Virus record (IMG/VR): IMGVR_UViG_3300028797_000010
Location: 21,381-85,380 of that record
DNA from: a virus
Taxonomy: Duplodnaviria; Caudoviricetes
DNA: 64,000 bases
Direction: 5' to 3' (one strand)
Made by a program: the position numbers and the translations under genes. The notes under the pieces are model-generated. The model saw only the letters and a program-made list of their open reading frames with translations, had not been told where the DNA came from and made no database searches. Shown here piece by piece: positions 2,483 through 63,207 of the stretch. Position 1 is the stretch's first letter; every line of letters begins with the position of its first letter.

Positions 2483-2650
2483 ATGGCAAAGTATCCATCA
2501 CAGCCGTTGAAGTTCATGCACGGCAACGCCGAGGTATTCGGACAGTATTACATGCACGGCAACGCCGAGGTATTCGGACAGTATTACATGCACAGCGCAA
2601 AGGCAAGACAAGCAGCACGCAAGCGCAAGCAGATTAACAAACGTAAGTAG
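2483..2650 (+). CDS. Small basic protein with a 12-aa duplication
   Basis: MAKYPSQPLKF(MHGNAEVFGQYY)x2 MHSAKARQAARKRKQINKRK. The frame is preserved through the duplication. Confidence 0.5.
   Translation: MAKYPSQPLKFMHGNAEVFGQYYMHGNAEVFGQYYMHSAKARQAARKRKQINKRK
2515..2593. repeat. Perfect 36-bp tandem duplication (two copies plus 7 bp)
   Basis: CATGCACGGCAACGCCGAGGTATTCGGACAGTATTA at 2515-2550 and 2551-2586, followed by CATGCAC. Confidence 0.97.
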
Positions 2651-27100: not shown

Positions 27101-30100
27101 TCACGCTGATTTTAACTGTTCCAACTCTTTTCTCAAAATCTCGTTCTCGCTTTCAAGTTCCTTGATACGCTTCTCGTGGTCAACCACCTTGCGGGCGGTG
27201 ATGACGGCGGAAACAATAGAAATAGCGTTATAGTCCAACGTAAGACCACGTTCTCCCATATCAAGCACCGTGTTTGGCAACACATTTTGCCAATATTGAG
27301 CGGATGTGCCAACATGCACTCCATCCCCATAGTCTTTGTCTTTCCACGTAAAGTTAAAGACAGGTGCAGACGCAATACTATTAATATTTAAATCGTTAAT
27401 GTCACCAGCAATATTCTTTTTTCTCATATCAGAAGAAATCACAGAACCGTTGACGCAAATTCCAGTGGCGTTGACGTTAAGGTAATTGCCACTCGGAAGC
27501 GTATATTTTTCCATATTAATAGTCGTGCTACTATCTACATAGAAATAAATCTTTCCTTTCACAAAGGAATTTCCGTCAATCTTTAACTTGTAAGTAGTGC
27601 CGCTGTCGGGGGCTATATTTATCCCTACATTGCCATCAAACTTTGTCGTTCCGTTGACATAAAGTTTGTAACCACTTTGAATGTTATCCGAACCTATACA
27701 TACTTGATATGTATCCACACCAAGGTATGCGTGACCGTTAACTTTTAGTTTATAGGTACTATCATCGGGGTCGCCTCCAATTCCTACGTTACCAGTAAGC
27801 GTACTTTTGCCTGTTACGGACAAAGTGCCAGCAGCTGCTATATTTCCACTTGCGCTAACATCGAAAACATAAAGCGTCTTGAACTTTAAGGACGATGAAC
27901 CAAGATATGATGAATTTGTGGTAGTTGGAGTAATATTGCCACCAACAGAAATATTTGTTGTTACGGCAAGCGAATTAGGAGATGTTGTCAAGTACCCTTG
28001 ATTGCCTACCCATGTTTCAGTAGCCACTTTATTTCCACCGCTATACAAAAGCCCACTCTTCATGTAGCAGTTGGCCTGCGTGTACGTCTGAACGCCATCT
28101 GCGCTTGCTGTGCTTGCGCCAACAAGATAAAAATTAGATGAAGATTGTGTTACGCCTGTACCCGTTGTATTCTTTGTGTCATTATCCGTATTTTCCCAAG
28201 GCACATGCACAAACGCTTTCCCGTCTGCCCTAAGTTGTACCGCGTAGTATCTTGCTACACTCCCCGTTTCCGAAATGATATTTGGAGATGAAGTCAAAAC
28301 ATTGGAGACCTTTATGATACCATAGTCAGATGCTGTAGCGGCTGGGAAAGTGATAACGCCATTCGTTGGGGTAAGGCTTGTGCCACCACTTGTAAGCGAG
28401 ATACTATCCACGCTACCACCACCGATACTACTGAGTGCCACCGTACCACCGCCAGCAAGGAGAACGTATGTATCATCACTCCCCGTAACCTTGTAGCCTG
28501 TAGCCTCTATAAGACCCGTCGTAAGGATGCCGTAGAGCGTTGTAACGCTGCTTACCGTTACGCTGTTCGCCACAACCTTCAACCGATAGTTGCTGTCAAC
28601 CGAACTGCCACCGATAATGGCCTTTCCATTCGTTACTTGCAAGTCGTTAGATGACACAATGGAGCCAGTCGATGTCAACTGGTTTGTCCTTATCGTGGTG
28701 TTCACGGAATAAGCCCATTCCGCGCCCGTCCACACAAGTGCGCTGTTTGCCACGTTCGATGTCGGTGCGGCAAGCGAGGACTGGTTAAGGCTGTTCACAA
28801 TATCACTCAGCACAAGCACAGAACTGCTTGTGTTCATGCCCAACGCACTTACGCCTCCCGTGGCAAAGAACGAGCCGTTCAGCTTGACCAAGCCGTTGTC
28901 AATGGTCAAATAGATGGCGTTTGTGTCGTTGTTAGAGTTTGGCTTGTAGAGGTATATCTTCTTTACGAACAGCGAGTTGTCAACACCGAGGTCGCAGTTT
29001 GCGGTGTCAACCTCATCTTTATTGTTAAGGTTGCCTTGTATATAAACCCTGCCTCCAGACCATGTGTGTAGGCAAGGGCTGTAGCCACCGCCAGAGTTGG
29101 TGGCATAAAGACGAACGGACGTTCCGAGGATTCTCGTCTGTCGGGTATTGTCGCTAAGTACAAGGTTATATCCCGTTATCGTCCCGCTTGTGCTTACCAC
29201 TTGCAGTGAGGCTACGTCCGAAAGGTTGTTGAGCGGGTCTCTGAAACGTATGAACGGTGTAGATGTTTCTGTAGTCGTGCTACTAAGGCAGCCAATGGAA
29301 ACATATTGATAGACGCTTGATGTGGCAGAATACTTAAGCCTTAACTGTCCGATTGCGTCAATGGCAAAATCACTTCCGCTCTTTACTACGGATAGTGTGC
29401 CCTCCATTGAAATAGAACTGCTTCCAGTATTGATTCCTACGCGACTGTTGGTGGTGTCGAAATAGAGCAACGAGTCTATGTTGGTCACATAGCTCAACGC
29501 TGCGGGCGTAGTCGATGTGCCGACGCTTACAGGAGAACCCGAAGTCCAGTAGTCGTTACCGAAAAGCGATTGTGTCGATGGCCTGTTTTGAATGTCACTC
29601 CAGTCAACGGTTGTCGTAAACTCATTAAGAGGCTTGTACCCCCACGAAGAGCCATTGTAAGCCAGCACACAGGCAACCGTCGGCGCATTATTTATGTTGT
29701 TGATGGAAAGCAACGGTTCGTATAAAGTAACACCACCGCCACCGCCGCTACCCGACGAAGCACCGAACGCGGCAAGGGATTGCATAGACCAAAAAGCCTT
29801 CAATGCCTTGATGTTGTTTATGGTGGCCAGCGCCGCAGTCCTTGCGCTTCCAGATAGTGCTTGTATGTCGGCAACGTTTATCTTCGTGTCGCTCGAATTG
29901 AAAGCGTTGAACATTGCCTCAAAGACATCAATTGCGACATAGTTGCTCGCCGCGTCCGAAACCTTCAAGTATTCAGAGAAGTCTATCAAGTCATTGCCAA
30001 TATACAGATAAGAGGTCTTGACCGTATCACCTTTTACCGTCAGTTCACCTGAAGCGTCCCATGATATGTTTCCGTCGGCCACATAACCCGAACCGTCAAA

Positions 30101-33100
30101 GCGGAACAGTGATTTTGCGTATCGGTAGCTTGCAAGATATTGTTCAAGCGTAGTACCTGCAGGGGGATTCCTTTGATAGTCGGCTATGAGTGATTCCTTG
30201 TCTATCGGGTCGCCACCATACCATGCGGCCACGCCATAGCCGCGCGAACTGGCACTGTACATTCCGCTAATACCACTCCATATATTCGGTGTGGCCGCCG
30301 TGTCGCGCAACGCCACCATAGAAGAAAGCACAAGACCGCCAGCAATCTGCGTAGTGCCTCCCGTCATGGCTTTAAGCACGTCCGTAAGATAGCGATACGC
30401 GTTGTAGTCCGAGGCAAGTTGCCAGTCACCAATACTAAACACTGGATTGCCTTGTGCGTCTACGCCCGAATCACGCTCACATACAAGTATCTCGTTTTCG
30501 TATTTTGGTGACGTTTGCCCCGACGGAGGCGTGTAATTGGCGTTTATCCACAAGTCACCTTTCTTGTAAGGCGGTATGGGATAGCCGTTAGCGTCAACAT
30601 TTCCAAGCCCTGTACCAAAGACGCGGTTATTTTCTACGAATTGTGAAAGCGGTATCTCCGTACCGTTGTCATCAACCATACTTCCAATGTCAAGGATAGC
30701 CTTTATCTTCAGCCTCGGAGGATTAAGCAGCGTACCGTCGCCTTGTGTGTAGTGAATATATGTACTGCCTTCCGTTTCACCCTGTGCTGGTATTGCACCC
30801 ACATACATGTCGCCGTAGACGTTCATATAGGCTCGTGCCGTTGACGAATCGTAACCAAGGGATATGTACATGTTTCCGTTGTGGTTGTACGTGTTGATGC
30901 CTTGGAATATCTGATAAGACGGGGCGTTTTCGCCGCTTACAAATTCCACTATTGCACCTTGACGCGTGGTGTCCCAGATGTTACCCATTTGTACAATGTC
31001 ATCTTGTGCAATAGGAGGTTCCGAACCCGTGTCAAAACTCAGATACGTATAGGAGTTTTGTCCGACGGTAATCGTGACATTTTGGGGGTTCCCGTTTGCG
31101 TCATGCCTATTCGAAAGGTCTATGTAGTGCTCCTCGTTGATAGGGCTTTGGCTTACGTTTGTCACAAGCCTTGCATAGTAATGCTGCTGGAGGCTTGTTG
31201 AGTCCACGTTCGTCTCCTCGCAGCACGCGAGGTCGCCTACCTCAAAATCGTTGGTGATTTTCTTGCCGTTGTCATCGGCTCGGAAGAAACAGCGGAAAAA
31301 ATCTGCCTCGCTTGCGTCGTTCGTCAGCACGCCGTTCGAGGTGTAGTATTCGACGCGCGAGCAGTTCATTCCCGCAGGCGATGCCACACGGTTGCCACCG
31401 CTGTGCTTGTACTTGCGAACCTCGACGGTATCAAAGTAAGCCTTTACGCGCACGTACATACGGTCGCACTCAAGATAAGTCCGTCCGTCGGCGTCCATGC
31501 GGAATATGCCGCCCTCGCCCAACAGCCCAGTGACATAGCGCTCGCCGACCTGCAGGCCGCGTATAAGCCGTATCAAGCCCTGTGCCGTATCGTCAACATC
31601 CTTGCGCAGGTAGCGGTTGTCGTTCACCGCGCCCACACCGCCCTCGCCCATCAAAAGGCGCAGGCTTGACACTTCGCTTGTCACCTGACCTATCGGGTTC
31701 AGCACAATCTCTATGTCATCGGTGAGCGTGATGTTGTATTCGGGCAACGGCTTGTCACCGTATTTTATGGTAAGCTGCTTGATGTACAAGGCGTGAACCA
31801 CTCCGCAGTATTCGAACCTCGCGATTACGTTCGGTCGCATCTGTGCAAGTATGTTGGCGTTCTTTGCAAGGAAATGCTCGTCGAACTTCAGCGGATAGTC
31901 GTAGTAGTACACGTTGTTGTCGTGCATGTACTGCAGCATGTCCGCGTCAAGCCTTTTCTCAGCACCCGTGACGTAGCTTTGCGGCAACGATATGCCCAAG
32001 ATAACGAACTTGTCGCCATCGTTCGCGCCGACAAGCGATTCTCCGTGCGGCTGCTGGTATATGTTCGGCATCAGCTTGCCGAAGGTAGTGTTCTCCTTCT
32101 TCACCACAACGGATATGGACGTGGACGTGCTATCGGGGTATTTATCGCCATCGCGAACATGGCCATCATCCTCTTCCAAATTCGGATTATGGATAACGGG
32201 GTCGAACTCGCCATCAGCGTTGTAGAAGTTGCGCTTGTAGTCCTCCCAGTCAACGGCAACGGGGAACGTACAGCCTATGCAAGCACCGCTGCGCATGTAT
32301 ATGGACATTTTCTGCGTGATTGCGGCACAGGCATAGAGGTCGAACCCAAGCGCGGGAAGAACCATTCTGAAGTACGACTGCACGTAGTTGCCGTCATCGT
32401 CCATAGAATCGTCCCAGTCGGGCGTGGGGATAACGGAGTTGTTAAGCAGTACGGTGTGCTCGAAGTTCAGTATCGTAGACTTGAACGTGACGTACTTGAA
32501 ATAGCCGTCGCTATGGAAACGCCAGTCGTATTGGTATGTGGTTCGCGTCTGGTTGCTCCATTGCTCGTCGGAATCGTTCTGAAGGAAAGACTCTTTCAGT
32601 GCCTTAATCGCATCCTTTTCGTCCTCGTTTTCGGACTCGCTGTAATATCCGTCAAGCAAGTCGAGGAAAGCCACTTGGGATATGGCGTCCATCATGCTGT
32701 TGTCATAGGACGTCACGTCCAAAAGCCGTATCTCTCCAAGTTCGGGCTTGATGTCCCCGAACTCGTGTATTTCGTATGACGGTTCGGACGGCACTATGGG
32801 GTTGTCCCAAGTCTCGTCCTGTGTGTCTATGGCGTCGTAGTAGTCTATAAGCTTTGTGTCGGGGTCGTAGTTGGGGTTGGTCGCGCCGCTTGCAAGGTAC
32901 GGACTGAGCCTGTTGAACAACGTCTCGACGTATATCGATGGCATCAGGTGGTTGCGCGTGAACGGGTGCTTGATAAGCTTCACGTACCTACCGCCCATGA
33001 TGCCCATGTACAGCGGATAGCTGTCGGGGTCTTCCCCGCTGTTGTTTATGGTGTAGTCCCAGTCGGGGTTTCCGTACCAAGGAATCTGCGGATAGCCGTA

Positions 33101-33952
33101 CGGTATGTTGTCCTCGCTTCCGTAGCCCGCTATGCGCGTGACAATCTTGTTGTTCCGTGGTGTGCGGGAGTTGTTCTTCAAGCCCAAGCCCTTACCGAAA
33201 TGGAACACGAAAGGCACATATTGCCCGCCGACGTTACTGAATATCTCTTGGTTGGGCAATCCGAACACTATCCTATAAAGCTTTCCTTCCGAATATTCGT
33301 TGTCCCAAGGATTTGCGTTGTCTATGATATACGGCACTTCCCATGTCTCGTAGGCTCGTTTCAAGACCTCGGCAACGGTTTGGTTGTCAAACGTCATCAC
33401 GTCGGAAAGCTTGTATATGTCATAAGACACGCCCGACGCGACATTAATCGTAACGTACCATTCCGTGTTGTCAAGGTTCTTGTTGAGCTTTGTGGCAAGG
33501 TCTACAAAGTTGCCCACCCACTGGAAGGTCTTATTCTCGGAAAGATAGTATTTCTGGCTATCCGTCACGGCAACGTCGGTGAACGGGAAATTGCCCAACA
33601 TGTACATCGGATGGTAGAACGTGAACGAGTACTTGGTCATTCCCTTCAGCTGCACATTGTCCGACGCCATGCCCTCGCGTACTATCGTGGGAGGATTGAC
33701 AAGCACAAACCTTGTGGGAACCTCCTCTTCATCGTCGGGGTTCCACTTGAACTCGATGTATTCACGCATCGTGACAGCCAGCGTGTTGTCCTTGTAGTAG
33801 ACGTCGCCAGTTATCTTGTCACCAAGCGACATGACCACGCTGTCGAACGTGGCCTTCTTTAATACGAGGTCATGGAACGGCGTCTTAGTGCCGTCATCGT
33901 CATAGTATATCGGGAACGTCCTGTTCAGCCCTAATGTATCACCCGTAGCCAT
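27101..33952 (-). CDS. Large tail spike/host-specificity protein with a C-terminal S74-type intramolecular chaperone
   Basis: 2283 aa. N-terminal KIVTRIAGYGS tail-protein region, GNVGI...YKLKV(N/D)G repeats, and a C-terminal SSDMRKKNI...GTSAQ...LTLDY...coiled coil. Confidence 0.8.
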   Translation of the reverse strand: MATGDTLGLNRTFPIYYDDDGTKTPFHDLVLKKATFDSVVMSLGDKITGDVYYKDNTLAVTMREYIEFKWNPDDEEEVPTRFVLVNPPTIVREGMASDNVQLKGMTKYSFTFYHPMYMLGNFPFTDVAVTDSQKYYLSENKTFQWVGNFVDLATKLNKNLDNTEWYVTINVASGVSYDIYKLSDVMTFDNQTVAEVLKRAYETWEVPYIIDNANPWDNEYSEGKLYRIVFGLPNQEIFSNVGGQYVPFVFHFGKGLGLKNNSRTPRNNKIVTRIAGYGSEDNIPYGYPQIPWYGNPDWDYTINNSGEDPDSYPLYMGIMGGRYVKLIKHPFTRNHLMPSIYVETLFNRLSPYLASGATNPNYDPDTKLIDYYDAIDTQDETWDNPIVPSEPSYEIHEFGDIKPELGEIRLLDVTSYDNSMMDAISQVAFLDLLDGYYSESENEDEKDAIKALKESFLQNDSDEQWSNQTRTTYQYDWRFHSDGYFKYVTFKSTILNFEHTVLLNNSVIPTPDWDDSMDDDGNYVQSYFRMVLPALGFDLYACAAITQKMSIYMRSGACIGCTFPVAVDWEDYKRNFYNADGEFDPVIHNPNLEEDDGHVRDGDKYPDSTSTSISVVVKKENTTFGKLMPNIYQQPHGESLVGANDGDKFVILGISLPQSYVTGAEKRLDADMLQYMHDNNVYYYDYPLKFDEHFLAKNANILAQMRPNVIARFEYCGVVHALYIKQLTIKYGDKPLPEYNITLTDDIEIVLNPIGQVTSEVSSLRLLMGEGGVGAVNDNRYLRKDVDDTAQGLIRLIRGLQVGERYVTGLLGEGGIFRMDADGRTYLECDRMYVRVKAYFDTVEVRKYKHSGGNRVASPAGMNCSRVEYYTSNGVLTNDASEADFFRCFFRADDNGKKITNDFEVGDLACCEETNVDSTSLQQHYYARLVTNVSQSPINEEHYIDLSNRHDANGNPQNVTITVGQNSYTYLSFDTGSEPPIAQDDIVQMGNIWDTTRQGAIVEFVSGENAPSYQIFQGINTYNHNGNMYISLGYDSSTARAYMNVYGDMYVGAIPAQGETEGSTYIHYTQGDGTLLNPPRLKIKAILDIGSMVDDNGTEIPLSQFVENNRVFGTGLGNVDANGYPIPPYKKGDLWINANYTPPSGQTSPKYENEILVCERDSGVDAQGNPVFSIGDWQLASDYNAYRYLTDVLKAMTGGTTQIAGGLVLSSMVALRDTAATPNIWSGISGMYSASSRGYGVAAWYGGDPIDKESLIADYQRNPPAGTTLEQYLASYRYAKSLFRFDGSGYVADGNISWDASGELTVKGDTVKTSYLYIGNDLIDFSEYLKVSDAASNYVAIDVFEAMFNAFNSSDTKINVADIQALSGSARTAALATINNIKALKAFWSMQSLAAFGASSGSGGGGGVTLYEPLLSINNINNAPTVACVLAYNGSSWGYKPLNEFTTTVDWSDIQNRPSTQSLFGNDYWTSGSPVSVGTSTTPAALSYVTNIDSLLYFDTTNSRVGINTGSSSISMEGTLSVVKSGSDFAIDAIGQLRLKYSATSSVYQYVSIGCLSSTTTETSTPFIRFRDPLNNLSDVASLQVVSTSGTITGYNLVLSDNTRQTRILGTSVRLYATNSGGGYSPCLHTWSGGRVYIQGNLNNKDEVDTANCDLGVDNSLFVKKIYLYKPNSNNDTNAIYLTIDNGLVKLNGSFFATGGVSALGMNTSSSVLVLSDIVNSLNQSSLAAPTSNVANSALVWTGAEWAYSVNTTIRTNQLTSTGSIVSSNDLQVTNGKAIIGGSSVDSNYRLKVVANSVTVSSVTTLYGILTTGLIEATGYKVTGSDDTYVLLAGGGTVALSSIGGGSVDSISLTSGGTSLTPTNGVITFPAATASDYGIIKVSNVLTSSPNIISETGSVARYYAVQLRADGKAFVHVPWENTDNDTKNTTGTGVTQSSSNFYLVGASTASADGVQTYTQANCYMKSGLLYSGGNKVATETWVGNQGYLTTSPNSLAVTTNISVGGNITPTTTNSSYLGSSSLKFKTLYVFDVSASGNIAAAGTLSVTGKSTLTGNVGIGGDPDDSTYKLKVNGHAYLGVDTYQVCIGSDNIQSGYKLYVNGTTKFDGNVGINIAPDSGTTYKLKIDGNSFVKGKIYFYVDSSTTINMEKYTLPSGNYLNVNATGICVNGSVISSDMRKKNIAGDINDLNINSIASAPVFNFTWKDKDYGDGVHVGTSAQYWQNVLPNTVLDMGERGLTLDYNAISIVSAVITARKVVDHEKRIKELESENEILRKELEQLKSA

Positions 33953-34954: not shown

Positions 34955-35079
34955 AACTGTACTTTTTATATTTCTTTATGTTTAAATGATATTTTCTGTT
35001 TAATCTTGCATTTACTGAATAATCTTGTAGATACCCATCATAATCCTTATATTTTCTATAGTTCATACTATCTTTATAC

Positions 35080-35110
35080 TCCTATCCACCCCTTCGGGGA
35101 TGGGATAGGA
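35080..35110 (-). promoter_or_regulatory. GC-rich DNA hairpin with a GAA triloop, DGR target-type
   Basis: Coding strand TCCTATCC-CAT-CCCC-GAA-GGGG-T-GGATAGGA, 15 nt after the stop codon of the CLec-like gene. Confidence 0.7.
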
Positions 35111-35125
35111 AGCATTAAGGGTTAA

Positions 35126-36412
35126 TTATAAAAGCACAACTGCCTGCACACGAAAACTGTTACCCACACCGTTGGTGCTCAAGGAACCATACGCTCCACT
35201 GAAAAACCAAGCATTATTGCTGTAATACCTCTGCGAAAACCATCGGGAGACAGAATTAGTAATCTGAGTACCACCCATCTTACCTATAGTAGCACTTATA
35301 ATATCTCTTTTATCGTCAGGCATAAACATCATACCATCATTTACTCCTGGTAGATACCAATCACCAACATCTATCTTAGGTATATCACTAAACCCTACAG
35401 TCTTTGCAGAGTGCATGGCAGGATACTTATAAGCAATAGTGCCATCCTTCTTGGTAAATGTATCATCACCATACTTGTAAGTAAGAGTTTTACCATCAGG
35501 AAGATTAAAGCAGCCATATTTTTGTGGAAACATTACCATGCAATTTGCAATATAATTAGCATAAGTGGTAAATTGCTCACGAAGGGTTGCACAATACTGT
35601 GAGGTATTGAAAGAGGTTTCGTTCACAACATCACCGCCAGCTGTCATATTACTTGTAGGGGTCTTTCCACTGACACTATAATAACTGTAGAATTTATCAT
35701 AGCTCATGCCACCATAAGAAGCACTGTATCCATTCTTTCTGAATAGAGTGCTGTTAGCGGGCATATCACCATAGACACATAGCTGGCCAGTAATATTACT
35801 ACCAGTACCACCAATAGCGGTAGAGTATTGCCTATAGTCAGCAGAAGCATCGTTCTGAACAATAATCCTACTATTGTCCTCATCATAGAAAGCCCACCAC
35901 TTATGGTTGTCGTAACCTACATAACCAGTGTTTCCAGCAGCTTCAATGGCAGTGGCTATCTCACTTGCAGATGTTGCATTAATCTCAGCTGAAGTGAGTG
36001 TTACTGGAATTGATACAGGATTAGCATAATCACCTGCCATTGCAAGCTTTATAGTTATGCTTGTAGAACTAACGGTTGTGATTTCATGCTGTACACAATC
36101 ACACCATTTAAAATTACCTTGAGCATCAACATGAATACCAAGAGTCTTATCACCTACCTTACCAACGACTGCACCAACTTTGGTAAATCCTTGTGAAGCA
36201 AGCAGGCTATGGTTAAGCTGGTCACCTCCCTTGAAAAACACAACCTTAGTGCCATCATGATAGATTGCATCACCACACATAGGAGTCTCTGTAACAATAT
36301 TGATACCATCAACCTTTATCTCGTCTGTACTGTCAATCAATGCAACCCTACTTTCAGTAGTAGGCTTGCCTGCTGCATCATAAGCAGCCTTGTTTGTATA
36401 TTTTACTATCAT
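35126..36412 (-). CDS. Putative receptor-binding protein with a C-terminal CLec-like DGR variable region
   Basis: DWYLPG...RWFSQRYYSNNAWFFSGAYGSLSTNGVGNSFRVQAVVLL. Confidence 0.75.
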   Translation of the reverse strand: MIVKYTNKAAYDAAGKPTTESRVALIDSTDEIKVDGINIVTETPMCGDAIYHDGTKVVFFKGGDQLNHSLLASQGFTKVGAVVGKVGDKTLGIHVDAQGNFKWCDCVQHEITTVSSTSITIKLAMAGDYANPVSIPVTLTSAEINATSASEIATAIEAAGNTGYVGYDNHKWWAFYDEDNSRIIVQNDASADYRQYSTAIGGTGSNITGQLCVYGDMPANSTLFRKNGYSASYGGMSYDKFYSYYSVSGKTPTSNMTAGGDVVNETSFNTSQYCATLREQFTTYANYIANCMVMFPQKYGCFNLPDGKTLTYKYGDDTFTKKDGTIAYKYPAMHSAKTVGFSDIPKIDVGDWYLPGVNDGMMFMPDDKRDIISATIGKMGGTQITNSVSRWFSQRYYSNNAWFFSGAYGSLSTNGVGNSFRVQAVVLL

Positions 36413-54900: not shown

Positions 54901-57854
54901 CCACCACGCTTAGACGTGAAGCATCCGAGGCTCTAAAAGAATACAAAGAGGCGCTTGAAGCAGCAGATATAGCAAGAAACAAGTTTAAGAAGGGCACGGC
55001 AGACCAAACACTTGTAACAGAAAAAGAAACAGCCGCACAAGAAGCCTATAACAAAGCTTTAAAGGCGGGCGTTAGTGAAGAAGAACTAAGAAAGGCCAAA
55101 AACAAGGGAGGTAGAGGTTCTAAAAAAGACGTGCTTGGTGATGCGCTCACCAAGGAAATACAGCTTATCACTGATATTAGAAAGCGTTACGAGGACTACA
55201 AAAAAGAAGGCGTAGACACACAGACGGCCATTGCAAAAGCCACAGACATGTACGGCTCGTCTTTAAAGAATGTAAAGAAAACGCTTGGAAAGTACGGTAT
55301 TGGCGGGCTTGAAGGTGCAGATGTAGCCAACATGGAAATGCGCGACCTTGTAGCAAAGCTTCAAGAAATGAAGCGTCTCGCAGAAACACAAGGCAATACA
55401 AAGGGCGTAGAAGCTATTGAAAAGGCCATTAATAATCTAAATGGCGAAATCACCAAGGTAGACTACAAGCGCATTACCGACGGTCTTAACAACGAACTTA
55501 GCAAACTGAAAGAGGATTACGAGCTTGGCATTGAATTGGATGCGAACCCAGAACTTGGTTCAATATTTGCCGACATGTTTGATATTGACTTGGACACGTT
55601 GCCAAAAAATGCCGAGGAATATGCCGCACAATACACCAAGCTTTTGAACCAATACCTTAAAGAAAACAAGTCCACGCTTGAACTTCCAAATTTGCTCAAC
55701 CTTACCAAGGATGACATGGCCATGTTCAAGGAACAAATGGAAAAGGGCGAAATTAACGAAAAGTGGTATGACGCCATCCTTAAAGGTTATCTTGCAACAA
55801 GGGATGTTCGCAAGAAAGAGGTGACGGACACCATGAAAGATTGGAACACGTTGCTAGAAAAGTACGCCGAGTACGAGACCAAGATGACCAACATAGCCCA
55901 GGATGCTGAACGTGAACGTGAAATTGCTATCGCGAAAGGTGCTCCACAATGGTTGCTTGATGCCATCGAAAACATGAAAAAGCAACGTCAAGCACAAGCG
56001 TCGTTCGAAGAGTTCCAAAAACGACCCGAATGGCTTGTGGCCACTGGTGACCTTGCTGGTATGACCAACGAATCCTTACAGGGTCTTGTCAATACGCTCG
56101 AAGATTTTAAGAAAAAAGGCGGCCTCACCGAAAAGCAGACCAAGCAGATAAATAAGGCAATTGTGGCATTGCACAAGCAGATACGCAAGGGCAACCCGTT
56201 CCATGCAATAGCAGACGCTATGGATGAGGCCAACATGCGTGCAAGCGTGTATGACGAAAAACTCGAAGAGACATCGAACCTTATCGACAGCTATATGTCA
56301 CGTCTTTCAGACCTGTCCGAAGACGAAAAGAAAAAGCTAAAGCAACTTATTGATGAATACAACAAGTTATTAAAGCTAAAAGAACGTGACTCAAAGGTTG
56401 ACGCATCCACCATTGTAAACGGCATAAACGACGCCATAAACGCCGCAAAACAAGCCACGGGGATATTCACCGATATGATGGATGCGCTTAGTGGCACGAA
56501 CGGCTCGCTTGCCGCAAAACGAATCAACCAAATCGTGGGCGTGCTTGAAAAAGGAGGCCAAGGTGCATCCATAGGCGCACAGTTCGGTGGCTACGGCGCA
56601 CTTATTGGCGGTGTCGCAGGAACACTTTCGGGACTTGTCACCACGTTCTGGGACGAGTGGTCAGGCAACGCAAGTATAACCGACGCGGTGAACGAATCCG
56701 TAAATGCCGTCAAAGACCTTGAGAATGCGTACAAGCGGCTTTCCTATGCTGCAGAGCAATACTACGGTGCTACGTCCATTGCGGCAAAGGAAACCACCAA
56801 GAGCCTGAAAGAAATGGAGCTTGTAGAACTGAGGCGGCAGCTACAGCTTGAGCAGTCGCGCGACAGCAAGAACCGTGACGAAGAAAGGATAAGAGACTTG
56901 CGTTCGGAAATCGTGGACTTGGAACAAGAAATCGCAAATGCGACAAAAGAGACCATCAACGACCTGTTGAGCATATCGTCACACGCCGATTTCTTTGAAA
57001 GCCTAATATCCGACATGATTAGCGCGTTCAAGAACGGAGAGGACGCAATGGATGCCTTTGAGCAAAAGTGGGCTTCCATGATTGACAGCATGGTGACAAA
57101 GCTTATACTCGGCCAAGTACTGCAGCACTGGGTCAAGACCGTAGAGGAAGGCGCGCAAAGCATAGTCGAAAAATATACTGGCGACAACGCGAGGGAGATT
57201 TCCGAACTTGAGTCAAAGATAGAAAAGATAGAGTCAAGCGACGCATACGATGCCGTCAAATACATCATAGACAACGAAAGCGACGCATGGAATCAAATCG
57301 CAAAACAACTTGGCCTTGAAGGGCTTGATTGGCGCGACCCACGTATATGGTCGCAAGTCGACACAATACGCGACATGTATATCGAAATGCTCAAAAAGCA
57401 ACTAAGCTATGCCAATTCACAAAGCTCCAGCCTTTCCGTCAACGCAACCGAAGAGTTGTTGGACTATTACACACAAGCTGGCGAGGAGTTCAAGGAAAAG
57501 TATGCGCAGGCAATCATCGACAAGATTGCAGGATACTATACATTTGGCCAAGACGCCGCCTCCAACCAGATGTCGGCTCTACAACAAGGTATTCAGGGAG
57601 TAACCGAGACGACGGCTGGTGCTATCGAGGCATACCTAAACGGCGTGTCGCAGCAAGTCTACCTGCATAACGAACTCTTGACACAGATTCGTGACGCGGT
57701 GGACAACATGAGCGGCGACGCCATGCTTGGAAGCGTATCGCAGATATTGCTGCAGTTACAGACGTCGTATCAGACACAGCAGGCGATACAGGGCATATTG
57801 GAAGGATGGTCTAACCCAAGCGGTCAGGCCGTAAAAGTTGAATTAATATCATAG
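51981..57854 (+). CDS. Tape measure protein
   Basis: 1957-aa helical protein with the tape-measure N-terminal motif FNELNAMALKSPFTLMELATGAKQLLAY...RLADISAA. Confidence 0.92.
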   Translation: MAANDDVLIIGKLEDGDLRKAISELVNYVGNQTSVMASQFVTSMDLMKGAMKDFAVTQKVSVDLMKESWKTMSASFDAMFAAQSAATGGGKGSGKAAYADNTIGALEQEIALLEKERKDLELNTDELRNQNKVIEEQRKLLSEQKGLSTQAEAAKKIRKELGDAMTMPSKNLADAQAKLSELERLQHKYAGTTQLSVQQQNRLTTAIQNTKEKIDKLTSTKPKTLKDVIGMDESSLDAVARKMRALKLVSVNPNDKNQIRDIGNEYARLSRLQAELMGKNIQLTHSNNYLAQSFGYIRNRIVYALTLGAITNFTKEIYEIRGQYELLERSLGILIDDMRRGSEIFNELNAMALKSPFTLMELATGAKQLLAYNFAEEEVVDTTRRLADISAALGVPMERLVYNLGQIRAQTVLNARDARDFANAGLAIVPMLAQMYTEEKRFGDEIVTTSQVFDMMSKKMVSYADVMKVINKVTDEGGKFFDFQAKQADTLKVKMANLTLAWNNMLNEIGQDNQDLLGAPLKGLKLLFENWRAVASVIKELIVVFGTYKAVAITVSLVNKSLAAWEAVKAFFQLAKSVKTARDAMALFNLTCQTNVFGLLISAVAAAIGMFTLFRNSVDDSSDNIEKFGKAGAKAVRDTKTLFNTLQNISKESSNYKKVMGELNSILGEYNIEQIKETDTIEQVNKKREVAISLIKQEALERKYLNDIEQGNERYETSTQQAKKEMRDSLKSAMTESIFLSGNEEIRQNADAIANIISDIVENNIMLIADKTGDEYEKGLDKIYEKIQERMLKIGISKETVSKAWLDDSLFFHSNIVADFIKKIKEAKEAQDKYNTALEKSYNAEKEAAEQGATFNDRVEQTQNSLIKAANDTEKFTKKIEELLKQYGGQNIIDFLVKIRTSGAPEWMKKMGIKELAQLAARFTALATNAQKAGKQSVDFGNGKVYTTQQLFERAAQYRQAYEEKIAEAEARKSTTLRREASEALKEYKEALEAADIARNKFKKGTADQTLVTEKETAAQEAYNKALKAGVSEEELRKAKNKGGRGSKKDVLGDALTKEIQLITDIRKRYEDYKKEGVDTQTAIAKATDMYGSSLKNVKKTLGKYGIGGLEGADVANMEMRDLVAKLQEMKRLAETQGNTKGVEAIEKAINNLNGEITKVDYKRITDGLNNELSKLKEDYELGIELDANPELGSIFADMFDIDLDTLPKNAEEYAAQYTKLLNQYLKENKSTLELPNLLNLTKDDMAMFKEQMEKGEINEKWYDAILKGYLATRDVRKKEVTDTMKDWNTLLEKYAEYETKMTNIAQDAEREREIAIAKGAPQWLLDAIENMKKQRQAQASFEEFQKRPEWLVATGDLAGMTNESLQGLVNTLEDFKKKGGLTEKQTKQINKAIVALHKQIRKGNPFHAIADAMDEANMRASVYDEKLEETSNLIDSYMSRLSDLSEDEKKKLKQLIDEYNKLLKLKERDSKVDASTIVNGINDAINAAKQATGIFTDMMDALSGTNGSLAAKRINQIVGVLEKGGQGASIGAQFGGYGALIGGVAGTLSGLVTTFWDEWSGNASITDAVNESVNAVKDLENAYKRLSYAAEQYYGATSIAAKETTKSLKEMELVELRRQLQLEQSRDSKNRDEERIRDLRSEIVDLEQEIANATKETINDLLSISSHADFFESLISDMISAFKNGEDAMDAFEQKWASMIDSMVTKLILGQVLQHWVKTVEEGAQSIVEKYTGDNAREISELESKIEKIESSDAYDAVKYIIDNESDAWNQIAKQLGLEGLDWRDPRIWSQVDTIRDMYIEMLKKQLSYANSQSSSLSVNATEELLDYYTQAGEEFKEKYAQAIIDKIAGYYTFGQDAASNQMSALQQGIQGVTETTAGAIEAYLNGVSQQVYLHNELLTQIRDAVDNMSGDAMLGSVSQILLQLQTSYQTQQAIQGILEGWSNPSGQAVKVELIS

Positions 57855-60541: not shown

Positions 60542-62695
60542 TTAAAACGGTGCATCGTCGCTACTTGGTGGCGCAAACGGTAAGTCATCACCGCCATAGT
60601 ACAAAGTGTTGGGCTTTGTGGGTTTGCTTTGCGGTTGTGATGCGGTTGGTTGCGGATTAGTGTTAAAGTCCATCGTGCCCTGCACAGGTTCGCGTTCCCA
60701 TCCATAGTGTATCGTCTCGTCCAACGTGTTCTTGAAACGACGGCTTTCGATTTCATATTGCATGCCTACCATAAGGTCTACAATACCCCACATGCGGTTC
60801 TTTGCCACCTCTAGTACGTTACCGAAACTACGGAATTGGTTAATCGTAGCCTCGCCAAAGAATTCCGCACCAACACGAAAGAAATCGTTGCAAACACGGT
60901 GCATGATAAACACGTTGTCTACGGCGTTGGTCAAGTCGGCAGTACCCGATATATCGTTCTTACGCAAGAATGCGGTAGTTTTACGCGGGTGTGCGACGAT
61001 GATGATATGTACCATGTTCCTTTTAGCAAAATCCTTTATTTGCAAGATAAGTTCCTTTTGCTTATTGTTCTTGTCACCCTCAAGTAAATCTATATCCAAA
61101 GACATGAGGTTATCAAGGATAAAGACGCGAACGCCGACTTTTAACAATTCGGTCATGTCATGGAACAATTGCTCCCACGTATTGCCGTATTCGTTATTGT
61201 AGAGATAGAACAACGGACGCATCCATTCGTCGATACGCGCCTTGATGCCGTTCGGTACGTAGTATTTGCCGTTGCCGTAGCTTGACATCTTTAAGTTATC
61301 CTTTCCTGCGGCTGCGATTTGAATCCAGCTTTTAAGAATCTTTTCGGGTAACTCGCCACTCCACAATGCCGTCGGCACGCCTTGGTCGATGATATTGAGA
61401 AATAAAGAATTCAACCACGAGGATTTACCGCTCGCGTTTCCTCCCGACAATAGAGTTACCTCACCGTAGTTCAATTGAACGATATTGCGGTCAAGTTCCA
61501 CATATCCCGTCTTTACGCCCTCGATGCTTGCAAGGTCGATACTTTGAATGTCGGGCATGGTAAGCCATTTCTTACCCAATTCGGGCAATTCCTCCTTTAT
61601 TTCGTAACGCGGCTTTTGCGGTGCATATTGACGTGGTGCATATTGTGGCTGAAACGCTGGCCTATCATAAGCATTAGGCTCGTAGAACAAACGAAAATCT
61701 TTCCATTGTTTATCCTTACAATGCGAATGGGCGCACGTATATGTTATTTTCCCTTCCGCGTCTTGGAATAGCGCAGATGAAAATGGATTGTTTGATGAAT
61801 GAGTTTCGTGCCAAGGGCATGTCTTTATTTCATATTTTGTTGACGCTCCATCTTGTTTTTTTCTATATTCAATACCATGCGAATTTAGCCAACTTTCCAA
61901 ATCAAATTGCTCTCCATATCCAATTCTTGTATTCCTTTGTATTGGTTTTGGGGCTTCCTTTGTTGGCAACAATGCAGCAATTGATTCAAATTTTTCTATG
62001 TCAGTTATATTGATTTCTTTGGGTACATAGATGATTTCCGACATACGCCAAGGTCTGTCCTCTAAGTTCGCACCTTTCTTTGCCATCGTTCCATATAACT
62101 TACAAAGACGCGCCAAATTGAACACCTTGGTATCAATATCCACCTTATCATCAGAAAAAACACTTGCAAGATATTCATAGAAACGTTTTATTGTTTCCGT
62201 TGTTTTTTCGTCATTTGGCATATCAACCTTAAAAGTGAGATGAAACCCATTGCCGCTCTTACTGATAATTGGGTCACTAAAACCTTTTTCACGCAAAAAA
62301 CGAAAAACATCTTGTGCCTTTTTGTGTGCCAATTCAAACTCATCGTTACTTGCATTTGTTCCAGATTTTCTTACTGGGTCGAAATCTACAAACACAAAAC
62401 TTCTTTTTACAATATCATTATCATTGGTTGTTATCTTTGGGCTTTTTACAAGTTTTTCGCTTTGTTGACGGCCATAACAAGCATTATCTATCTTGTTTAA
62501 GACAAAATATATTTGCTCGTCATCCATTTCGGAATATGGCTTAATGGCATTGATTACGCTTTCTACGTTATTAAAGTAACCGCTATATTGAAAGCGACCA
62601 AGTATGCGGACTTCCGTAAACGTATTATCCTTCACGAAAATATCCCACCATTTGCGTATTGTTTGTTCGTTTATCATTGCTTTTTGTATTTCCAA
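60542..62695 (-). CDS. Primase-helicase: AEP-type primase domain, Zn finger and SF4 (DnaB/Twinkle-like) helicase
   Basis: FVDFD, SGNGFH and NLARLCKLYGT; CPWH...CAHSHC; Walker A SGGNASGKS, FILDNL, IVAHPRK and LEVAKNR. Confidence 0.85.
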   Translation of the reverse strand: MEIQKAMINEQTIRKWWDIFVKDNTFTEVRILGRFQYSGYFNNVESVINAIKPYSEMDDEQIYFVLNKIDNACYGRQQSEKLVKSPKITTNDNDIVKRSFVFVDFDPVRKSGTNASNDEFELAHKKAQDVFRFLREKGFSDPIISKSGNGFHLTFKVDMPNDEKTTETIKRFYEYLASVFSDDKVDIDTKVFNLARLCKLYGTMAKKGANLEDRPWRMSEIIYVPKEINITDIEKFESIAALLPTKEAPKPIQRNTRIGYGEQFDLESWLNSHGIEYRKKQDGASTKYEIKTCPWHETHSSNNPFSSALFQDAEGKITYTCAHSHCKDKQWKDFRLFYEPNAYDRPAFQPQYAPRQYAPQKPRYEIKEELPELGKKWLTMPDIQSIDLASIEGVKTGYVELDRNIVQLNYGEVTLLSGGNASGKSSWLNSLFLNIIDQGVPTALWSGELPEKILKSWIQIAAAGKDNLKMSSYGNGKYYVPNGIKARIDEWMRPLFYLYNNEYGNTWEQLFHDMTELLKVGVRVFILDNLMSLDIDLLEGDKNNKQKELILQIKDFAKRNMVHIIIVAHPRKTTAFLRKNDISGTADLTNAVDNVFIMHRVCNDFFRVGAEFFGEATINQFRSFGNVLEVAKNRMWGIVDLMVGMQYEIESRRFKNTLDETIHYGWEREPVQGTMDFNTNPQPTASQPQSKPTKPNTLYYGGDDLPFAPPSSDDAPF

Positions 62696-63207
62696 ATAAA
62701 ACCACCTGCTGATTTTCTTAGACCATTACATACAGAATGGACATTCCTTATACCCAAGACACGTTTTACTTCTCGTGTGCATTGCCATTCCTTTACAAAT
62801 TCGCCTTCTTTGGTATATTGCAATACTGGCTTGCCATTCGCTTTTCTTACTTTTTCGTTTCTCTTTCCATAATTGTTGTTATAGGAATGATTGCACCATT
62901 CAAGATTATCAACGCAATTGTTTTGCTTGTTTTCGTCTTTATGGTTTATACAACGGTAGTTATTCGCATTTTCTATGAAAGCAGTTGCCACCAACCTATG
63001 AATCTTGTAAATCTTCTTTTTGCCTTCTTTGTGTAACCAAACATAATTATACCCTCCATTGTTGGTTGATTGCTTCAATACCTTTTCTTTTGATACATAA
63101 TCAGCCCAACCGACAATACGATGACGCGATAAAGATTTAACTCTACCAAGATTCGATACTTGATACAAACCCTCGTAGCCTACAACGTCTTTCCAAATTT
63201 CTTCCAT
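62674..63207 (-). CDS. NUMOD4-HNH-NUMOD1 homing endonuclease
   Basis: EIWKDVVGYEGLYQVSNLGRVKS; HRLVA..F...INHKDENKQNNCVDNLEW; KPVLQYTKEG...FIWKY. Confidence 0.92.
   Translation of the reverse strand: MEEIWKDVVGYEGLYQVSNLGRVKSLSRHRIVGWADYVSKEKVLKQSTNNGGYNYVWLHKEGKKKIYKIHRLVATAFIENANNYRCINHKDENKQNNCVDNLEWCNHSYNNNYGKRNEKVRKANGKPVLQYTKEGEFVKEWQCTREVKRVLGIRNVHSVCNGLRKSAGGFIWKYKKQ

Follow-up and report, generated by a model that had tools for sequence, protein, structure and literature searches.

An orphan DGR target and a reverse transcriptase remnant in a complete 85-kb phage genome

The locus and its variable repeat

The target gene described here belongs to the tail module of a virus (Caudoviricetes) represented by an IMG/VR genome of 85,380 bp, which has direct terminal repeats, a GC content of 44% and a completeness rating of 100%. 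The window, i.e., the whole stretch of DNA analyzed, comprises 64,000 nucleotides and corresponds to bases 21381-85380 of this record. A bovine gut sample is probably the source of the phage. Two run assemblies of the sample hold the region on one contig of about 9.1 kb each, with no differences. The locus is read on the minus strand and comprises the target gene with a variable repeat (VR) and an IMH-like element at its 3′ end, a GC-rich hairpin past the stop codon, a remnant of a reverse transcriptase (RT) gene, and two flanking genes (Table 1). The upstream neighbor co-travels with the target gene in related phages. The downstream DUF4376-like gene begins 124 nt past the hairpin, in agreement with the approximately 125 nt given in a preliminary description of this DNA, and now occupies the position expected for the gene that follows the RT in related phages. 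This 186-aa ORF and another of 152 aa separate the target from a gene for a 2283-aa protein (window 27101-33952), the third gene on the downstream side and part of the same tail module. Matches of the large protein are limited to PHROGs of unknown function (phrog_38044, E 1.2e-27). Distant from the locus, a 36-nt unit forms a perfect tandem duplication (window 2515-2586), with two copies that are 100% identical.

Table 1. Features of the target locus (positions in the window)
Feature	Position	Strand	Basis or remark
Upstream neighbor, 769 aa	36438..38747	-	Homologous ORFs in 45 related loci; weak CBM_5_12 match
Target gene, 428 aa, tail-module protein	35126..36412	-	ORF; C-terminus SRWFSQRYYSNNAWFFSGAYGSLSTNGVGNSFRVQAVVLL followed by the stop codon
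VR, about 120 nt, 16 hypervariable codons	35129..35248	-	Extent from VR/TR pairs of relatives; variable columns; codons
IMH-like 3′ element CAGGCAGTTGTGCTTTTA	35129..35146	-	GC-rich core compared with family consensus GGCGGTCRCGCTTT; 3 of 14 positions differ
Hairpin CTTCCTATCCCATCCCC-GAA-GGGGTGGATAGGAG, 34 nt, GC-rich	35079..35112	-	Fold energy, z-score, homology
Deletion junction, approximate	35034..35049	-	Local DNA alignments to L064 on both flanks
RT remnant, encodes YLQDYSVNARLNRKYHLNIKKYK	34962..35033	-	Matches the last ~23 residues of family RTs
Downstream neighbor, 186 aa	34394..34954	-	Pfam DUF4376, E 7.5e-4 (below cut-off); phrog_1807 tail fibre, E 6.8e-4

An alignment of 120 homologues revealed 16 hypervariable columns (entropy > 2.3 bits) among the last 45. 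They are interspersed in a fixed scaffold, RWFAxR..V..AW.F.G..G.L....V...RCQAV.LL. The residues K, E, Q, M and W account for 0.1% of the hypervariable columns, compared with 18% in the remaining protein; such a near-absence is what adenine mutagenesis of AAY codons should produce. In the window, the VR residues read YYSNN..F.S.AY.S.STNG.GN.F. The preliminary description had noticed that most of the presumed variable codons end in a pyrimidine, and the count bears this out with 15 NNY codons of 16. The exception, GCG, also fits adenine mutagenesis, because the template repeat (TR) of two relatives checked (L017 and L044) has ACG at this position.

The 3′ end of VR contains the GC-rich core of the IMH-like element. 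The family core, GGCGGTC(G/A)CGCTTT, is conserved at the DNA level across loci of 30-63% GC. In the VR/TR pairs checked, the two repeats diverge just past GCG/ACG in the 3′ part of the core, with CT in VR and AA or AT in TR, as expected of IMH versus IMH*. The core of the window, GGCAGTTGTGCTTT, carries three substitutions. Among 47 loci, 34 have no mismatch to the core and 11 have one; three mismatches occur in the window and in L063 only. The substitutions fit a relaxed constraint after cassette loss.

The hairpin begins 13 nt past the TAA stop of the target gene (15 nt in the preliminary description, which had recognized the GC-rich stem and the GAA loop). Its stem of 12-13 bp includes one bulged base and is capped by a CGAA/GAA loop; the folding energy is -25.4 kcal/mol, with z = -4.1 relative to dinucleotide shuffles. 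A GC-rich hairpin is common to all 47 loci, at a distance of 0-18 nt (mostly 5-14 nt) from the stop. The hairpin of the window is homologous to those of the nearest relatives, including that of the cassette-bearing L064 (CTCC-GAA-GGAG), to which it was aligned at the DNA level. A function as terminator was considered and rejected: a T tract is absent 3′ of the stem, and a terminator scan does not flag the hairpin. The spacer between stop and hairpin (window 35113-35125, and its equivalents in L002-L064) contains a recurrent CTTAA(A/T) or ACTAAAT motif. It recurs despite the very different GC content of the loci and may be part of the homing site.

The target protein has no match to a Pfam family at E values up to 0.1, the DUF1566 model included, and no PHROG hit. 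Its full-length homologues number 179 and share 38-53% identity, the best one 53%. An AlphaFold (AF2) model built on 40 sequences reached a pLDDT of 92.9 and a pTM of 0.86. It predicts a C-type-lectin (Lcl/DUF1566-like) domain to which both the N-terminal part and the C-terminal ~140 residues contribute. In VIA alignments, the best structural matches were the Bacteroides ovatus fimbrial protein BACOVA_04982 (4eps, Z 13.2) and the C-terminal domain of Legionella Lcl (8q4e, Z 11.3). The C-terminal domain of Bdellovibrio Bd2740 (8oks, Z 8.9), dozens of canonical C-type lectins (Z 6-7) and the DGR target TvpA (2y3c, Z 6.4) followed. Foldseek assigned a probability of 0.99 to matches of the Lcl/4eps type. 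A Foldseek search of the whole 428-residue model against the PDB returned nothing at E < 0.001; the matches came from the VIA alignment. The model thus predicts a C-type-lectin fold of the Lcl/DUF1566 type for the target protein, in line with the C-type lectin proposed in the preliminary description, and the likeness to DUF1566 is structural only. The protein presumably acts as receptor-binding tail protein and would bind a host receptor.

Both TR and an RT gene are missing. PF00078 searches yielded no RT candidate across the complete 85,380-bp genome. No second copy of VR is present in the 64-kb window, and in a blastn search of the whole genome VR alone is recovered. The best ungapped second match agrees at 62 of 135 bases. 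The accessory ORF of about 140-150 aa, which holds the avd position in relatives, has no match in the genome of this phage. The earlier statement that 64 kb contain neither TR nor RT therefore stands and extends to the whole genome.

Related cassettes and the deletion junction

For comparison, 48 related loci were taken from IMG/VR. Among the 30 loci with most flanking sequence, 26 records encode an RT (RVT_1). The distance from the VR start to the downstream TR is 670-875 nt in most related loci, and the TR codons at precisely the variable positions are AAC or AAT. In the pairs checked, mismatches between VR and TR are almost confined to TR adenines. Adenine-specific VR/TR pairs were obtained for about 30 loci, the close relative L064 among them. 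The order of the cassette is target gene (with VR, IMH and hairpin), accessory ORF of ~140-150 aa, TR, RT of ~410-470 aa, and a gene of 84-85 aa. Neither the accessory ORF nor the post-RT gene has a Pfam or PHROG match. The assignment of the protein family as genuine DGR target is supported by the cassette-bearing relatives, the family-wide AAY-type variation and the predicted fold. The same grounds support the preliminary description in its call of a C-type-lectin DGR target with VR, IMH and hairpin. The adenine-specific variation and the linkage to TR and RT, on which that call depended, are both found among the homologues. Searches with the single target protein detected no strain-level relatives in viral contigs or metagenome contigs. 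The comparison documents a large DGR target family of rumen and gut phages, which has a well-defined cassette and is absent from Pfam and PHROG.

The nearest target homologues, L062, L063 and L064, originate from phages of low GC content (30-37%), and in two of these phages TAG encodes Q. The database proteins at L062:3135-4448 and L064:368-1651 (also L064:2412-3638) are recovered only if TAG is read as Gln. In L064, in-frame TAG encodes the conserved Q of RWFAQR and that of xQAV, in VR as well as in TR. It seems that a DGR is at work here in a phage of 30% GC with a recoded stop codon.

Cassette ORFs from 23 related loci, comprising 31 RT-length ORFs with one or two per locus, served as tblastn queries against the genome of the window's phage. 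TR-derived frames matched VR, as expected. The C-termini of three RTs matched genome positions 56342-56461 (window 34962-35081) on the strand of the target and directly past the hairpin. E values were 1e-4, 4e-4 and 3e-3 for the RTs of L064, L042 and L043, respectively, with 63-68% identity over the core. This C-terminal scrap was all of an RT that the cassette ORFs of the relatives detected. A profile of the last 80 residues was derived from the RTs of 33 relatives (32 distinct C-termini) and searched, with filters off, against six-frame pieces of the same genome and of G004, a complete phage genome of the group. The RT remnant was the sole significant match (E 3.7e-5), and YLQDYSVNARLNRKYHLNIKKYK aligns to profile positions 57-79 of 80.

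L064 is the nearest relative that possesses TR and RT and was used as reference for the junction. The left flank, composed of stop, spacer, hairpin and TATAGAAAATAT, aligns with the stretch of L064 from the stop to the accessory gene (score 59, shuffle maximum 45). The right flank, from about 35033 to 34960, aligns with the 3′ end of the L064 RT gene (score 85, shuffle maximum 66). Both alignments together place the junction in the 16 nt given in Table 1. Compared with L064, about 1.84 kb are missing, i.e., the accessory gene, TR and ~93% of RT. The RT remnant implies that the locus once had its own cassette and lost it.

Cassette loss is not restricted to this phage. G004 (L005) is a complete phage of 78,094 bp with many genes in common with the window's phage, at 40-58% amino-acid identity. 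It has an orphan target with hairpin (L005:10001-11586), without RT or TR anywhere in the genome. The 85-aa gene that normally follows the RT begins 54 nt past the target stop. One variable codon of G004, CTG at the AW[x]F position, cannot have arisen from an AAY codon if only adenines were altered, a hint of drift since the cassette was lost. In the target tree, the gene of the window groups with L062, L063 and L064, and that of G004 with the cassette-bearing L033. The losses in the two phages were probably independent, since their target genes belong to different clades, each beside cassette-bearing members; given the long branches of this tree, the independence is tentative.

Two further loci contain endonuclease genes. 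In L037, the homology to the sister locus L031 stops 51 nt past the stop, and a NUMOD4 endonuclease gene follows (L037:4980-5579). L008 has kept the accessory gene and part of TR, with a NUMOD4/HNH_3 endonuclease gene (L008:5829-6437) in place of the RT. Invasion by endonuclease genes is one way in which DGRs may be lost. The family has thus repeatedly lost the cassette, twice with substitution by an HNH homing-endonuclease gene. For annotation, this means that an active DGR cannot be assumed from a VR-like C-terminus, and the recurrent loss bears on the question of how often phages give up tropism switching. A homologue of the NUMOD4/HNH endonucleases (39% identity over 191 aa) is encoded at window 62674-63207, elsewhere in the genome.

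Origin of the orphan target

Very probably, the orphan target results from the deletion of a cis-encoded DGR cassette, which froze one receptor specificity. The C-type-lectin tip of the receptor-binding tail protein would once have been rewritten by this DGR. A deletion of ~1.8-1.9 kb, in situ or in a donor of the tail module, would then have taken out the accessory gene, TR and ~93% of the RT gene. It would have spared VR, the hairpin, an IMH that now shows slight decay, and the final ~23 codons of the RT. Without TR and RT, no mutagenic cDNA would be formed, and VR would be fixed at one sequence, subject to ordinary mutation only. The hairpin would have lost its role in retrohoming and would persist as a relic, or perhaps as 3′ structure of the mRNA. 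A deletion of TR and RT with a frozen specificity was one of two possibilities raised in the preliminary description, and the C-terminal RT remnant and the junction mapped against L064 speak for it. VR is presumably no longer diversified. A point against this account is that VR is free of decay: adenine mutagenesis could have produced each of the 16 variable codons, and the hairpin has kept its structure. The loss would then be recent, unless these features are being maintained in some way. Under cassette deletion, VR would be the fossil of a cis DGR with a mapped scar, which explains the apparent orphan and removes it as evidence for diversification in trans.

In the contigs of the source sample (two run assemblies, 12-17x), no alternative contigs or variant letters occur over VR, as far as contigs, which hide rare variants, can reveal. 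A hint in the other direction comes from run X3, which belongs to another bovine study and has a depth of 2. It contains a 151-nt contig over 35194-35339 that differs at 12 of 146 positions (~92% identical). The differences, known in part, comprise Y>D (35224), Y>N (35227) and S>Y (35247), all of which affect the first two positions of variable codons. Third-position changes are present as well, at 35234, 35243 and 35309. A second X3 contig, over 35471-35621, differs at 1 of 151 positions (99% identical). Between close strains, VR has accordingly changed faster than the rest of the gene. The pattern is consistent with a DGR that was active until shortly before the cassette was lost, or with a sister strain in which the cassette survives, and does not require action in trans.

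The cassette may never have been part of this phage. Recombination would then have brought in target, hairpin and RT scrap together, from a donor that already carried the deletion, an account that differs from cassette deletion in situ only in the place of the loss and is rather unlikely. The nearest homologues L062, L063 and L064 reside in phages of 30-37% GC, two of them with TAG=Q, compared with 44% GC here, and the genome-level relative G004 has its target in another clade of the target tree. Breakpoints just past the hairpin in three lineages suggest in addition that gene and hairpin move as a unit. However, no donor was found, and with 53% identity to the best homologue any transfer must be old.

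The second possibility of the preliminary description, diversification by a remote or trans-acting DGR, found no support. A co-infecting phage, a prophage or the host would have to supply the accessory protein, RT and a matching TR RNA, and IMH and hairpin would direct retrohoming to a VR that is still being diversified. The intact hairpin and VR, with variable codons that are all adenine-derived, would agree with such a supply, as would the X3 strain, which differs mainly within VR. In the Bordetella system, avd, TR and RT can act in trans from a plasmid, and cellular DGRs have remote targets (PMC5758913). According to Wu et al. (PMC5758913), however, phage-borne DGRs should not have remote targets. 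Searches with VR-scaffold patterns (N at the variable positions) gave zero matches and no cognate TR in IMG/VR, JGI metagenome contigs and GTDB genomes, zeros that are weak evidence because these collections exclude the window's own record. Sampled family TRs that align over the whole VR each have ~25-30 non-adenine mismatches to it, and the others align partially; no sampled TR is therefore compatible with this VR. Three of the 14 positions of the IMH core carry substitutions, VR is uniform in the contigs of the source sample, and the RT remnant shows that the locus owned, then lost, a cassette. Diversification in trans is consequently very improbable. A wider version includes G004, the second complete phage of the group, which likewise keeps target and hairpin without a cassette. 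Both phages would borrow accessory protein, RT and TR RNA from a co-infecting DGR phage or prophage, which would explain the kept VR and hairpin and would mean that receptor diversification is shared between phages in trans. This version is likewise very improbable.

The likeness of the C-terminus to a DGR repeat might also be accidental or due to convergent composition, and the hairpin a mere terminator. The target lacks a Pfam or PHROG hit, and stem-loops after genes are common. The protein is nevertheless homologous over its full length to proteins with adenine-specific TRs and RTs, the hairpin is homologous to that of L064 and has no T tract after the stem, and an RT remnant is present. 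The probability of a chance likeness is close to nil.

Comparison with known systems

The locus resembles the DGR of Bordetella phage BPP-1, with its Mtd target, IMH and hairpin/cruciform (Guo et al., 2011, PMC3240598). Both have a receptor-binding gene of the C-type-lectin kind whose 3′ end is formed by a VR, and this VR terminates in a GC-rich IMH or IMH-like element. A short-looped, GC-rich hairpin comes next, and the variable codons go back to AAY in either case. In contrast to BPP-1, the genome of the window's phage lacks TR, avd and RT, and the element cannot operate. Its lectin domain is predicted to be of the Lcl/DUF1566 type, not of the Mtd type, and the role of its hairpin is putative.

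Remote targets, which are not adjacent to the other DGR components, are known from cellular DGRs, e.g., in Treponema and Legionella, where they match a TR in their own genome (Wu et al., 2018, PMC5758913). They share with the present locus a VR-bearing gene without adjacent TR or RT. Unlike them, the phage has no TR in its complete genome, and its locus keeps an RT remnant of its own.

Type V pilus adhesins have been described as DGR targets in Bacteroides (bioRxiv 10.1101/2024.11.15.621889). The best structural matches of the target protein, Lcl (8q4e) and BACOVA_04982 (4eps), correspond to it in that variable residues are placed on strands near the C-terminus. Sequence identity is 13-20%, and the protein here belongs to a phage tail, whereas the matches are bacterial adhesins.

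Among phages, the closest parallel is provided by the crAss-like AlphacrAssvirinae genus I. DGR cassettes are incomplete in 66 of 91 genomes, with truncated RT and target genes; VR is present in 80 genomes, TR in only 30 (Morozova et al., 2020, PMC7290462). As in the window's phage, a tail-fibre target keeps VR with TR missing and the RT truncated, and the loss is frequent within the lineage. The crAss-like cassette lacks avd, whereas the cassettes of the relatives studied here include an accessory ORF. The present case is also distinguished by its carrier, an 85-kb rumen phage with direct terminal repeats, by a different target family that has no Pfam or PHROG model, and by the mapped scar, consisting of the 23-residue RT remnant and the junction. 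Decayed DGR cassettes in phages are already known; what this locus adds is a cleanly mapped scar and an uncatalogued target family.
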